DNA from: Escherichia coli
GTDB lineage: Bacteria; Pseudomonadota; Gammaproteobacteria; Enterobacterales; Enterobacteriaceae
Reading direction: 5' to 3' (one strand)
Assembly: GCF_003991155.1 (NCBI RefSeq)
Contig: NZ_CP031297.1
Length of the DNA stretch: 64,000 nucleotides
Part shown: one piece after another, positions 1 to 64,000 of the stretch
Position numbering within the stretch: the stretch's first letter is position 1
Layout of the letters: every line of letters starts with the position of its first letter
Program-made: the position numbers and the translations under genes
The notes under the pieces: model-generated
Told to the model about the DNA's origin: nothing
Databases searched by the model: none
Seen by the model: only the letters and a program-made list of their open reading frames with translations

Positions 1-1101
1 ATGGACCACCAGCTAGAAAGTATCGACGGAACAATCATGAGCAAGAGAACCAAAGACAAAGACCTGGAGAAACTCGACGTAATCAAAGACTCACCGCAAA
101 TGAGCCTGTTTGAGATCATTGAATCTCCGGCCAAGAAAGACGACTACTCCAACACCATCGAGATCTACGATGCGCTGCCGAAGTACATTTGGGACCAAAA
201 GCGTGAGCATGAAGATTTATCCAACGCTGTAGTGACACGACAATGCACCATCAGAGGCCAGCATTTCACGGTGAAGGTGAAGCCAGCCATCATCGAGAAG
301 GATGACGGAAGAACCGTGCTGATCTACGCGGGACAGCGAGAGGAAATCCTTGAGGATGCTCTACGCAAGCTCGCAGTGAACGGGAAAGGCCATATCATCG
401 AGGGCAAGGCTGGAGTCATGTTCACTCTGTACGAACTCCAGAAAGAGCTCTCGAAGATGGGTCACGGTTACAACCTGAACGAAATCAAGGAAGCAATCCA
501 GGTTTGTCGTGGCGCAACACTCGAATGTATCAGTGATGACGGCGAAGCCTTCATCAGCTCCAGCTTCTTCCCGATGGTGGGACTTACCACCAGAGGTGAG
601 TTTCGCAAGAAAGGCGGGAACGCCAGGTGCTATGTGCAGTTCAACCCGCTGGTAAACGAATCGATCATGAATCTGTCGTTTCGTCAGTACAACTACAAAA
701 TCGGAATGCAAATCCGCTCCCCTCTTGCACGGTACATCTACAAGCGAATGAGCCACTACTGGACTCAAGCATCGCCAGATTCGCCGTACACGCCATCGCT
801 TATCAGCTTCCTGACACAGAGCCCTCGTGAATTGAGCCCACGGATGCCGGAGAACGTCAGAGCTATGAAGCTCGCTCTGGAGGCCCTCATCAAACAAGAG
901 GTCATAAGCGACTACGACGCGAACCAGATCAAGGATGGCCGCAGAGTCATCGACGTGCGGTACGTCATAAGGCCTCATGAGAACTTCGTGAAGCAGGTGA
1001 TGGCGTCCAACAAGCGTAAGCAGCAGACAGAGCTACGGGCCATCAAGCAAGGCATGATCGACCACGACATCATTGATGAACCCCAGCGTAAGGGGAGGTA
1101 G
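1..1101 (+). CDS. putative plasmid replication initiator (Rep); possibly 5'-truncated at window edge
   Basis: 366-aa ORF ending ~120 bp upstream of an iteron array with DnaA boxes and an AT-rich segment; assignment is contextual, no catalytic motif recognised. Confidence 0.4.
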   Translation: MDHQLESIDGTIMSKRTKDKDLEKLDVIKDSPQMSLFEIIESPAKKDDYSNTIEIYDALPKYIWDQKREHEDLSNAVVTRQCTIRGQHFTVKVKPAIIEKDDGRTVLIYAGQREEILEDALRKLAVNGKGHIIEGKAGVMFTLYELQKELSKMGHGYNLNEIKEAIQVCRGATLECISDDGEAFISSSFFPMVGLTTRGEFRKKGGNARCYVQFNPLVNESIMNLSFRQYNYKIGMQIRSPLARYIYKRMSHYWTQASPDSPYTPSLISFLTQSPRELSPRMPENVRAMKLALEALIKQEVISDYDANQIKDGRRVIDVRYVIRPHENFVKQVMASNKRKQQTELRAIKQGMIDHDIIDEPQRKGR

Positions 1102-1140
1102 CCACCAGAAGCTCCCAATACCCCAGGGAAAAGAAAGATA

Positions 1141-1161
1141 GGCGCGTCAGCGCCTTTTTTT
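1141..1161 (+). terminator. rho-independent terminator-like hairpin after Rep ORF
   Basis: GGCGC-GTCA-GCGCC stem-loop followed by T7 run. Confidence 0.55.
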
Positions 1162-60860: not shown

Positions 60861-60934
60861 TTACAGAGGCGAGTCTATTTCCATCCCCCGGATACACTGC
60901 CCAGCATCCAGTAATCCAATCTTAGGGGATAGAC

Positions 60935-61642
60935 ATGCGGACAAAATTACTTGGGGCGCTGATGGTGTTCGGGATTATTACCGGCACGGCTCATGCGTCA
61001 TCGAAATTGGAAATCACCGATCCCAGAGCGGCGAAGATAGAGGACATTGTAGAGCTACCCATCAAAGGGGTTCGAGCCGTCCAAAGTGATGGGCAGATCA
61101 TGTTCCTCTCTGAAAACGGACGATTTGTTATTTCAGGACAAATCTACGACCTGTGGAGCAAGAAGCCCCTCAACACGATGTCCCAAATGAGGGATGTAGC
61201 GGAGCGTATCCACTTCAAGAGCATGGGCATGGATGTGGACACGCTGAACACTGTGTCGATGGGGCGTGGTGACAAAGAGGTGGTGGTCTTTGTTGATCCT
61301 AGGTGCGCGGTTTGCCATCAGCTCATGGGTGATGCCAAATCGCTGGTGGATGATTACACCTTTAAATTTATCGTGATTCCAGCTCTGGGTGCTGAGTCCA
61401 ACCGCCTGGCAAAAAACTTGTACTGCGCGAAAGACAAAACCCACGCGCTTGATGCGCTGATGAACAACACCCTGGGTTCCCTTCCTTCAAAAGAAACCTG
61501 CGACCCCGGCCAATACGACCAAACGCTGCTGACAGCTCATTTCATTGGGATTGAGGGCGTTCCGTTCGTTGTTGCTCCGGATGGTCGTGTCAGCAAAGGA
61601 CGTCCGAAGAACCTGAAATCATGGTTGGAGAGTGCTGAATGA
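60935..61642 (+). CDS. DsbC-like periplasmic thiol:disulfide interchange protein (T4SS-associated)
   Basis: 235 aa; signal peptide; CAVC thioredoxin-like active site; stop overlaps next start. Confidence 0.7.
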   Translation: MRTKLLGALMVFGIITGTAHASSKLEITDPRAAKIEDIVELPIKGVRAVQSDGQIMFLSENGRFVISGQIYDLWSKKPLNTMSQMRDVAERIHFKSMGMDVDTLNTVSMGRGDKEVVVFVDPRCAVCHQLMGDAKSLVDDYTFKFIVIPALGAESNRLAKNLYCAKDKTHALDALMNNTLGSLPSKETCDPGQYDQTLLTAHFIGIEGVPFVVAPDGRVSKGRPKNLKSWLESAE

Positions 61643-64000
61643 TCGTAACCATCAAAAAGAAACTCGAAGAAACGTTGATCCCGGAGCACTTGCGAGCTGC
61701 CGGGATTATTCCTGTCCTGGCCTATGACGAAGACGATCATGTCTTCCTTATGGATGATCACAGTGCAGGCTTTGGTTTCATGTGTGAGCCCCTGTGTGGT
61801 GCCGATGAAAAAGTTCAGGAGCGAATGAACGGTTTCCTGAATCAGGAGTTCCCGTCGAAGACTACGCTCCAGTTTGTCCTGTTCCGCTCCCCGGACATCA
61901 ATCAGGAGATGTACCGGATGATGGGTTTGCGTGATGGCTTCCGTCACGAGCTGCTGACATCTGTTATCAAGGAACGGATTAACTTCCTCCAGCACCACAC
62001 GACAGATCGCATATTTGCCAAGACCAACAAAGGTATCTACGACAATGGCTTGATCCAAGACCTCAAGCTGTTCGTTACGTGCAAAGTCCCCATCAAGAAC
62101 AATAACCCGACTGAAAGCGAACTCCAGCAGCTCGCACAGCTTCGCACGAAGGTCGAATCATCGCTTCAAACCGTTGGTCTGCGTCCTCGCACAATGACGG
62201 CGGTGAACTACATCCGGATCATGAGCACCATCCTGAATTGGGGGCCAGATGCTTCATGGCGACATGACTCTGTGGATTGGGAGATGGATAAGCCCATCTG
62301 CGAGCAAATCTTCGATTACGGCACCGACGTGGAAGTCAGCAAGAATGGCATCAGGCTGGGTGACTACCACGCGAAAGTCATGTCAGCGAAAAAGCTGCCT
62401 GACGTTTTCTACTTTGGTGATGCGTTGACCTATGCCGGGGATCTCAGCGGCGGCAATTCCAGCATCAAAGAAAACTACATGGTCGTGACCAATGTTTTTT
62501 TCCCTGAGGCAGAAAGCACGAAAAACACTCTGGAGCGCAAACGCCAGTTCACTGTAAACCAAGCCTACGGGCCGATGCTCAAATTCGTGCCGGTGCTGGC
62601 GGACAAGAAGGAGAGCTTCGACACTCTCTATGAGTCCATGAAAGAGGGGGCTAAGCCAGTCAAGATCACCTACTCGGTGGTTTTATTTGCTCCAACCAAA
62701 GAACGTGTTGAAGCGGCGGCGATGGCCGCACGAAACATCTGGCGTGAATCTCGGTTCGAGCTGATGGAGGACAAGTTCGTTGCTCTGCCGATGTTCCTCA
62801 ACTGCCTGCCATTCTGTACCGACCGGGATGCAGTGCGAGACCTATTCCGCTACAAGACCATGACAACCGAGCAGGCTGCTGTGGTCCTGCCGGTGTTTGG
62901 GGAATGGAAGGGGACCGGGACCTATCATGCAGCGCTGATTTCCCGCAACGGCCAGCTCATGAGTCTGTCTCTTCACGACAGTAATACCAACAAGAACCTG
63001 GTGATCGCAGCCGAATCCGGCTCGGGTAAATCGTTCCTTACCAACGAACTGATTTTTTCCTACTTGTCCGAGGGGGCTCAGGTCTGGGTTATTGATGCCG
63101 GTAAGTCCTACCAGAAGTTGTCGGAAATGCTCAATGGCGACTTCGTTCACTTTGAAGAAGGAACGCACGTCTGCCTCAACCCGTTTGAGCTCATACAGAA
63201 CTACGAGGACGAAGAAGACGCGATAGTCAGCCTCGTTTGTGCGATGGCTTCGGCTAAGGGCTTGCTGGATGAATGGCAAATCTCTGCGTTGAAACAGGTC
63301 CTTTCTCGCCTGTGGGAAGAGAAAGGTAAAGAGATGAAGGTTGACGACATCGCTGAGCGCTGCCTGGAAGAAGAAAATGACCAGCGCCTCAAGGATATTG
63401 GTCAGCAGCTCTACGCCTTTACGTCGCAGGGCAGCTACGGGAAATACTTCTCTCGCAAGAACAACGTCAGCTTCCAGAACCAGTTCACTGTACTGGAGCT
63501 CGATGAACTGCAAGGGCGTAAGCACTTGCGTCAGGTTGTACTACTCCAGCTTATTTACCAGATCCAGCAAGAAGTATTCCTGGGTGAACGTAACCGCAAG
63601 AAAGTCGTCATCGTGGATGAGGCCTGGGACCTGCTCAAAGAGGGCGAGGTCTCGGTCTTCATGGAACATGCCTACCGCAAATTCCGTAAGTACGGTGGCT
63701 CCGTTGTCATTGCAACGCAGTCCATCAACGACCTCTATGAGAACGCAGTGGGCCGCGCCATCGCGGAGAACTCGGCCAGCATGTACTTGCTCGGCCAAAC
63801 CGAAGAAACCGTGGAATCTGTTAAACGTAGCGGTCGTCTGACCCTTTCAGAGGGCGGGTTCCACACCCTCAAAACGGTACACACCATCCAAGGCGTGTAC
63901 TCAGAAATCTTTATCAAATCGAAGAGCGGTATGGGCGTCGGTCGCTTGATAGTGGGCGACTTCCAGAAGCTACTTTATTCGACCGATCCGGTGGACGTTA
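61639..64000 (+). CDS. conjugative transfer ATPase (TraC/VirB4-like), 3'-partial
   Basis: No stop before window end (absent from ORF track); my translation shows Walker A AAESGSGKS and Walker B VVIVDEAWD. Confidence 0.85.
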   Translation, partial: MIVTIKKKLEETLIPEHLRAAGIIPVLAYDEDDHVFLMDDHSAGFGFMCEPLCGADEKVQERMNGFLNQEFPSKTTLQFVLFRSPDINQEMYRMMGLRDGFRHELLTSVIKERINFLQHHTTDRIFAKTNKGIYDNGLIQDLKLFVTCKVPIKNNNPTESELQQLAQLRTKVESSLQTVGLRPRTMTAVNYIRIMSTILNWGPDASWRHDSVDWEMDKPICEQIFDYGTDVEVSKNGIRLGDYHAKVMSAKKLPDVFYFGDALTYAGDLSGGNSSIKENYMVVTNVFFPEAESTKNTLERKRQFTVNQAYGPMLKFVPVLADKKESFDTLYESMKEGAKPVKITYSVVLFAPTKERVEAAAMAARNIWRESRFELMEDKFVALPMFLNCLPFCTDRDAVRDLFRYKTMTTEQAAVVLPVFGEWKGTGTYHAALISRNGQLMSLSLHDSNTNKNLVIAAESGSGKSFLTNELIFSYLSEGAQVWVIDAGKSYQKLSEMLNGDFVHFEEGTHVCLNPFELIQNYEDEEDAIVSLVCAMASAKGLLDEWQISALKQVLSRLWEEKGKEMKVDDIAERCLEEENDQRLKDIGQQLYAFTSQGSYGKYFSRKNNVSFQNQFTVLELDELQGRKHLRQVVLLQLIYQIQQEVFLGERNRKKVVIVDEAWDLLKEGEVSVFMEHAYRKFRKYGGSVVIATQSINDLYENAVGRAIAENSASMYLLGQTEETVESVKRSGRLTLSEGGFHTLKTVHTIQGVYSEIFIKSKSGMGVGRLIVGDFQKLLYSTDPVDV

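Follow-up and report, generated by a model that had tools for sequence, protein, structure and literature searches.

We conclude with near certainty that the stretch of 64,000 nucleotides from Escherichia coli contig NZ_CP031297.1 analysed here, called the window in the following, constitutes the initial 64 kb of a type 1 IncC (formerly IncA/C2) conjugative multidrug-resistance plasmid backbone, that it is indistinguishable from plasmid pR148, and that it is maintained as a plasmid and has no chromosomal integration module. The window was compared base by base with positions 1-64000 of record NC_019380.1 (JX141473), and 0 mismatches were found (64,000/64,000 bases equal). This record is pR148 of Aeromonas hydrophila, a circular plasmid of 165,906 bp, which is typed by PLSDB/MOB-suite as replicon IncC, relaxase MOBH and mating-pair formation class MPF_F. 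The match begins at record position 1. Position 1 of the window is the ATG of repA, and many matching IncC records in PLSDB likewise start there.

The window was also searched in three thirds against PLSDB by megablast, and the thirds matched 1,116, 1,105 and 1,060 records, respectively. Carriers of the backbone are mainly Klebsiella, Salmonella, Escherichia, Citrobacter, Vibrio and Providencia, and the majority are predicted to be conjugative. Because this backbone is conserved in more than 1,000 PLSDB records, its parts do not occur together by chance. The window belongs to the IncC family, and does not merely resemble it, because all testable defining features were found. The repA allele of the IncC replicon is present by identity to the IncC-typed NC_019380.1; origin, partition and transfer features are described below. 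For type 1 IncC plasmids pR148 serves as the reference; its type 1 backbone is the most complete one and carries neither the ARI-B island nor the blaCMY region (PMC6872532). Type 1 plasmids are marked by orf1832 (not orf1847) and by the absence of the i1 and i2 insertions (PMC6872532). The assignment to type 1 is based on the identity of positions 1-64000 to pR148 together with the presence of the large open reading frame at 55300-60786, i1 and i2 not having been located singly; rhs1 lies outside the window. The window is an already known broad-host-range plasmid and not a new island/plasmid hybrid.

A preliminary description of the window had pointed out that an iteron Rep, ParAB, TopB, a MOB_H TraI, TraD and a type IV secretion system (T4SS) occur together. 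This combination was recovered here (14 iterons, RepA fold, Pfam/NCBIfam scores). The description was largely correct, and its classification was wrong in one important detail, the class of the T4SS. It had left open whether the element is a true plasmid. The identity to circular pR148 supports this option, as does the distribution of the segment comprising repA and the replication origin oriV. In 5,426 complete E. coli genomes this segment was found at 135 places, 132 of which are on plasmids and 3 on chromosomes.

Several points weigh against our conclusion. Each third of the window is matched at 100% identity by many IncC plasmids. The boxes for the activator AcaCD come from a hand-made pattern, and RepA was assigned by its predicted fold, gene position and the literature, in place of a Pfam or NCBIfam match. 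Chromosomal copies exist as well (3 E. coli places, one of them beside an IS26 resistance region), and judging from the window by itself a chromosomally embedded copy has a small residual probability.

An IncC backbone embedded in a chromosome, for instance fused via IS26 or another insertion sequence (IS), instead of a free plasmid, is the alternative that survives best. In its favor are the 3 of 135 places on chromosome records. Strain ECKH-100 provides an example in which chromosome record NZ_CM181230.1 carries, at 4153017-4197017, IncC backbone including repA, mobI and acaCD beside IS26 and resistance genes. This arrangement suggests an IS-mediated fusion rather than integration via att and integrase, and it reflects either IS-mediated integration or an assembly join; the copy was viewed on one side only, as far as the IS26/resistance region and short of a chromosomal junction. 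Against this alternative, such copies are rare (about 2% of places). The window begins with the repA ATG itself, where IncC plasmid records conventionally start, and is an unbroken backbone without an IS. We therefore regard a chromosomal location as very improbable.

Transfer genes and the class of the secretion system

The gene for the MOB_H relaxase TraI was located at 42644-45616 (+). TraI scored 427 bits with the NCBIfam model MobH NF041494 (cut-off 200) and 297 bits with Pfam TraI_2. Knock-out of traI abolishes transfer (PMC5587640). The next gene, traD (45613-47478, +), encodes a type IV coupling protein of the SXT subfamily (TIGR03743 SXT_TraD, 747 bits; cut-off 366). Five small genes, annotated by the Prokaryotic Genome Annotation Pipeline (PGAP), occupy 47489-50164 (+) between traD and traL and include a DUF4400 gene at 48030-48659. 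Genes '234' and 's043(traJ)' have been named after traD (PMC5587640), and we infer that the DUF4400 gene is traJ. The block traL-E-K-B-V-A follows at 51010-55099 (+) and was recognized by F-type and TraA-family NCBIfam models. TraL (TIGR02762, 50.5 bits; cut-off 31), TraV (TIGR02747, 60.8 bits; cut-off 44.8) and TraA (NF041281, 118 bits; cut-off 50) scored above the cut-offs. For TraE, TraK and TraB the best matches were also F-type models, all below cut-off. Between traA and dsbC lies the type 1 IncC marker orf1832 (55300-60786, +), which codes for a large protein of 1,828 aa with Ig-like domains (PGAP annotation; PMC6872532) and had no NCBIfam match. A dsbC-like disulfide isomerase gene at 60935-61642 (+) reached 70 bits with the NCBIfam DsbC model, below cut-off, and is annotated by PGAP as 'DsbC family'. 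The last gene, traC (61639-64000, +), encodes an F-type VirB4 ATPase and is cut by the window end (the gene ends at 64086 in pR148). A full-length DNA topoisomerase III gene, topB, is found at 39452-41644 (-; Pfam Topoisom_bac 362 bits, Toprim, Zn_ribbon_Top1).

TraC scored 658 bits with the F-type model TIGR02746 (cut-off 567), in contrast to 70 bits with the MPF_G-type VirB4 model traC_PFL_4706 TIGR03744 (cut-off 520.6). The MPF_G families of 'integrating conjugative element protein' (TIGR03745-TIGR03759) gave sub-threshold matches only, such as 33 bits for TIGR03747 (cut-off 138.5), obtained with a small gene in the gap between traD and traL, and 17.9 bits for TIGR03752 (cut-off 241). The secretion system is F-type (MPF_F) and not of the genomic-island class MPF_G, because TraL, TraV, TraA and TraC pass F-type or TraA-family models and the MPF_G models fail badly. 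MPF_F is the published class for IncA and IncC plasmids (PMC9709138). The order expected for IncC, a MOB_H TraI and TraD and then the F-type traLEKBVA-dsbC-traC block, is present.

The preliminary description had labelled the T4SS as genomic-island type (MPF_G) and had compared the organization with hybrids of plasmid and integrative and conjugative element (ICE) such as pKLC102. The label is contradicted by the TraC scores and by the MOB-suite type, and the analogy points to the wrong family because the T4SS is MPF_F, not MPF_G. The closest integrating relatives of IncC are the SXT/R391 ICEs (PMC9709138, PMC4207636). An element like pKLC102, PAPI-1 or ICEclc, with a MOB_H relaxase, an MPF_G T4SS and an integrase and tRNA att site just outside the window, would share the MOB_H class of TraI. 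TraI also matched the PFGI-1 class relaxase domain TIGR03760 below threshold (101 bits; cut-off 161), while the general MobH model passes. The weak TIGR03747 match and a tyrosine recombinase elsewhere in pR148 point in the same direction. Against such an element stand the F-type TraC, TraL, TraV and TraA matches, the MPF_F type of the identical record, the lack of a tRNA gene in the whole reference plasmid, and a published backbone recombination site that is resolution-like (PMC5587640). We consider its probability to be negligible.

Boxes resembling those of AcaCD were searched with a pattern derived by hand from Table 1 of PMC4207636, so that individual sites are provisional. The pattern matched 14 times in the window (3.75 expected). 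One such palindrome, at 42551-42565, lies between traI and the divergent gene at 41859-42476 (-). Similar boxes start at 5654, 18227, 32848, 50255, 50926 (upstream of traL), 55204 (upstream of orf1832) and 60845 (upstream of dsbC). Thus, matches are found directly upstream of traI and its divergent neighbor, traL, orf1832, dsbC and several plus-strand backbone operons. Their positions agree with the ChIP-exo map of pVCR94, where peaks were reported upstream of traI/vcrx059, traL, traV and dsbC (PMC4207636). A putative activator box of the AcaCD type would precede each transfer operon.

The window encodes TraI as MOB_H relaxase, an SXT-type TraD and, of the F-type pilus and secretion genes, the first block (traLEKBVA, dsbC, traC). 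Further transfer functions of pR148 are encoded elsewhere on the circle. The genes traW/U/N (64908-70756) follow directly past the window end, traF/H/G are found at 153628-159730 and the FlhDC-like activator genes acaDC at 161662-162818. mobI (165091-165630) is located across the circle just before position 1, and the origin of transfer, oriT, lies immediately upstream of mobI (PMC5587640). The window alone would be unable to transfer, with oriT, mobI, traW/U/N, traF/H/G and AcaCD residing in the rest of the plasmid. Its tra genes would therefore depend on an activator, an oriT and further T4SS genes outside the window.

Search for an integration module

No tRNA or tmRNA gene was detected in the window by ARAGORN, nor a tRNA gene in the rest of pR148. 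PGAP annotates no coding sequence for an integrase, recombinase, resolvase or transposase within positions 1-64000 of the identical pR148 record. A tblastn search of the window with eight queries (the pR148 backbone integrase, IntI1, two resolvases and four transposases) gave a best E value of 0.1. Twenty hypothetical proteins encoded in the window, each 166 aa or longer, were scanned with Pfam and showed no recombinase domain, and no RNA family was found in the window with Rfam at gathering thresholds. Hence, neither the tyrosine integrase with tRNA att site of pKLC102/ICEclc-type elements nor the int/xis and attP module of SXT/R391 was found in the window. The absence of an integrase, att site and tRNA gene from the 64 kb, as stated in the preliminary description, was confirmed by these searches (ARAGORN, PGAP, tblastn, Pfam).

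An integration module outside the window, the second option of that description, received no support. At 146962-147972, pR148 encodes an Xer-like tyrosine recombinase of 336 aa, whose domains are Phage_integrase and, at the N terminus, a SAM-like one. Its gene sits near a published site that resembles a dimer-resolution site. This site, RecHS, lies between rhs and int, consists of a 14-bp inverted repeat and, as a dimer-resolution site would, supports recombination in both directions (PMC5587640, PMC9709138). No other site-specific recombination activity has been published for the backbone, and RecHS acts like a site for dimer or cointegrate resolution (PMC5587640). RecHS and oriT were also considered as att-like sites in the window and were rejected, as both lie outside it, RecHS between rhs and int and oriT upstream of mobI (PMC5587640, PMC9709138). 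The int locus of SXT/R391 is occupied by acr2 in IncA/C plasmids (PMC4207636). Since pR148 has no tRNA gene, RecHS is resolution-like and acr2 stands at the int locus, the true plasmid holds and the outside integration module does not.

An SXT/R391-family ICE in its excised, replicating form, for which one could cite the SXT_TraD subfamily of TraD (747 bits), the combination of MOB_H and MPF_F and the naming of SXT/R391 as closest relative (PMC9709138), is excluded by the nucleotide identity of the window to an IncC plasmid, and it is also contradicted by the iteron replicon, the lack of int/xis in the window, acr2 in place of int (PMC4207636) and a published protein identity of 24.7% to 79.8% between IncA/IncC and SXT/R391 transfer genes (PMC9709138). 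The SXT-subfamily TraD, MOB_H relaxase and F-type T4SS are all present in the window, and these features are common to, not exclusive to, SXT/R391.

Replication, partition and solitary iterons

The first gene of the IncC backbone, repA (1-1101, +), encodes a protein of 366 aa named 'RepB family plasmid replication initiator' by PGAP, and its predicted fold is that of an iteron-binding initiator. RepA had no match in Pfam-A or NCBIfam scans at E≤0.01, and phmmer and profile searches against PDB sequences returned noise only (E above 0.4). An AlphaFold (AF2) model built from an alignment of 42 homologues reached a mean pLDDT of 89.5 and a pTM of 0.87; a single-sequence model was unusable (pLDDT 36). 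When the model was compared with the PDB by Foldseek, all 42 of 42 matches at E≤0.001 were iteron-binding initiators. Among them were RctB domains 2-3 (5tbf, E 4e-8), RepE54 bound to iteron DNA (E about 1e-6) and Pi (2nra, E 1e-4). The prediction for RepA is thus an iteron initiator with tandem winged helices, as in RepE, Pi and RctB domains 2-3, and its gene stands beside its own iterons. Homologues of RepA include replication proteins of Buchnera aphidicola plasmids.

Directly downstream of repA, oriV (1224-1982, +) contains 14 direct iterons of about ATRTGGGNNCGYTGCACG, identified by repeat and pattern searches. The iterons are 18-20 nt long and lie in a single orientation on the same strand. 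The pattern ATGKGGGNNNNYTGCACG, with at most one mismatch, matched 15 times in the window compared to 0.06 expected, and 12 of these matches fall in 1224-1936. Two more divergent copies, at 1942-1959 and 1965-1982, were found by the repeat search and bring the number to 14. The published IncC origin has 11-14 iterons of 19 bp with the consensus yaTRTGGGNNcgcTGCACG, downstream of repA and with a DnaA box (PMC7433901). The iterons of the window agree with this consensus and with the published copy number, and a DnaA box is present. A perfect DnaA box, TTATCCACA, is located at 1630-1638 (+) and a second one at 1889-1897 (-). These two are the only perfect DnaA boxes in the whole 64 kb, and both lie within the iteron array. 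Sequence reading and a short-repeat search showed that an A+T-rich stretch with short repeats containing GATC adjoins the iterons (1985-2135), and this is the probable DNA-unwinding region. RepA would bind the 14 iterons directly downstream of its own gene, and theta replication would start once RepA, together with host DnaA at the two boxes, has opened the A+T-rich region beside the iterons. We deduce this step from the anatomy of the origin, the predicted fold and published work on the RepA/C replicon.

Differences from pUMNK88-like IncC plasmids cluster in the origin. In the first 4 kb, pUMNK88 differs from the window at 110 positions (2.7%), 65 of them in the oriV/iteron region (1001-2200), and RepA is changed by one residue. 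The E. coli records of the repA-oriV segment form two groups, one with at least 99% identity (36 records) and one with 95-99% (90 records; about 97.3% among the matches listed).

The partition genes form the operon parAB-053, which has been described, and binding of ParB to parS has been observed by electrophoretic mobility shift assay (PMC10954446). In the window, parA (29421-30206, +) encodes a Walker-type partition ATPase (Pfam AAA_31 117 bits, CbiA 66 bits), parB (30210-31391, +) a centromere-binding protein with a KorB domain (Pfam KorB 131 bits, ParB_N 51, HTH_ParB 42), and the third gene, orf053 (31440-31712, +), a small winged-helix protein with a helix-turn-helix (HTH) domain (Pfam HTH_43, 39 bits). 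Pattern searches located a parS core, TTTCACATGTGAAA, at 29358-29371 in the palindrome of the parA promoter and eight further perfect cores starting at 4541, 5620, 9204, 9663, 14978, 18314, 32773 and 50192. The perfect 14-bp core occurs 9 times in the window (0.03 expected) and 14 times in the whole of pR148. This count falls inside the range of 12-14 sites at which ParB is reported to bind IncC plasmids (PMC10954446), so that both parA-parB-053 and the dispersed parS sites of the family are present. The nine cores extend across 46 kb, and most of them occupy intergenic gaps that separate plus-strand operons. The layout is a dispersed centromere and not one site beside parAB. ParA and ParB would segregate the low-copy plasmid via these palindromes scattered on the backbone.

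Two further ParB-related proteins are encoded in the window. A protein of 182 aa (14419-14967) has the ParB_C dimerization domain, with a parS core 11 nt past its stop codon, and one of 312 aa (25274-26212) has the ParB HTH domain only. A gene for a RelE/ParE-family toxin (13906-14256) and one for an XRE antitoxin (13599-13901) are annotated by PGAP on the minus strand (13599-14256). The literature names tad-ata as a maintenance function of IncA/IncC plasmids (PMC7433901), and the pair probably represents this addiction module. It would add post-segregational killing to plasmid maintenance. A short tandem repeat (16 nt x 2.2) was noted at 14273-14307 in the toxin-antitoxin operon's promoter region, and another (21 nt x 2.0) at 32727-32769 in that of the operon starting at 32962. 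Both repeats are possible operator sites.

Outside oriV, three lone iteron copies were found at 3002-3019 (-), 3938-3955 (+) and 26497-26514 (+). The copy at 3938-3955 lies 18 nt upstream of the start codon at 3973, and that at 26497-26514 within the intergenic region 26409-26647. All three are kept in position in the IncA-like plasmid NZ_CP100990.1, which is about 88% identical. One extra copy is present in this plasmid, in the intergenic region of stbA and mobI (oriT). Across all of pR148 no other good iteron copies were found beyond oriV and the three lone sites. Judged by sequence and position, the lone iterons might be functional RepA-binding sites that tie initiator occupancy to how the long backbone operons of the plus strand are expressed, or might control copy number as additional handcuffing sites; we put this forward as a tentative idea that is more doubtful than probable.

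Apart from these modules, three DNA methyltransferase genes were observed at 27247-28491, 31765-32400 (-) and 35591-37018. No neighboring restriction gene is annotated, and they appear to be orphan methylases. A PAPS-reductase/DndC-like gene is located at 2590-3705 (-). The methyltransferases and the DndC-like gene may serve in evasion of host defence after transfer.

Relation to known plasmids and integrative elements

In enterobacteria and vibrios, IncC plasmids rank among the major carriers of genes for carbapenemases and cephalosporinases, and they mobilize resistance islands of the SGI1 type. The value of the present analysis is the correct filing of the window under a known backbone, on whose replication, partition, relaxase, regulation and oriT experimental work already exists. 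The window holds no new biology, and the only loose thread is the conserved lone iterons outside the origin.

Elements of the pKLC102/PAPI-1/ICEclc type share with the window a relaxase of the MOB_H class, a TraD-type coupling protein and ParA/ParB-like genes, and they carry TopB. They use an MPF_G T4SS and a tyrosine integrase that targets tRNA genes, whereas the window has an F-type T4SS and neither an integrase nor a tRNA gene.

The SXT/R391 ICEs are closer. They share the MOB_H relaxase, the SXT-subfamily TraD and an F-type T4SS in three blocks (traLEKBVA, traC-W-U-N and traFHG), and in addition mobI, FlhDC-like master activators and ssb-bet-exo (PMC9709138, PMC4207636). SXT/R391 elements insert site-specifically in the chromosome via an integrase, encoded by int, and an attP site (PMC4207636). 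The IncC backbone, unlike SXT/R391, has an iteron replicon, parAB-053 with dispersed parS sites and acr2 at the position of int. The activators AcaCD and SetCD are not interchangeable (PMC4207636).

The IncC and IncA plasmids pVCR94, R55, R16a, pRA1 and pUMNK88 have the same backbone and the same studied functions (RepA and iterons, parAB-053/parS, TraI, the AcaCD regulon and oriT upstream of mobI). Experimental work on these functions has been published (PMC4207636, PMC5587640, PMC10954446, PMC7433901). In this region, identity to the IncA-like plasmid NZ_CP100990.1 is about 88%. Unlike the window, many relatives have ARI-B or the blaCMY region of 4.5 kb inserted in this stretch. The middle third was covered to at least 80% in one place in only 303 of 1,105 PLSDB records, and matches to the tra region were mostly in 2 pieces spanning 28.5 kb. 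With pR148 the window shares every base, and with it gene order, iterons, parS copies and tra genes, without any difference.

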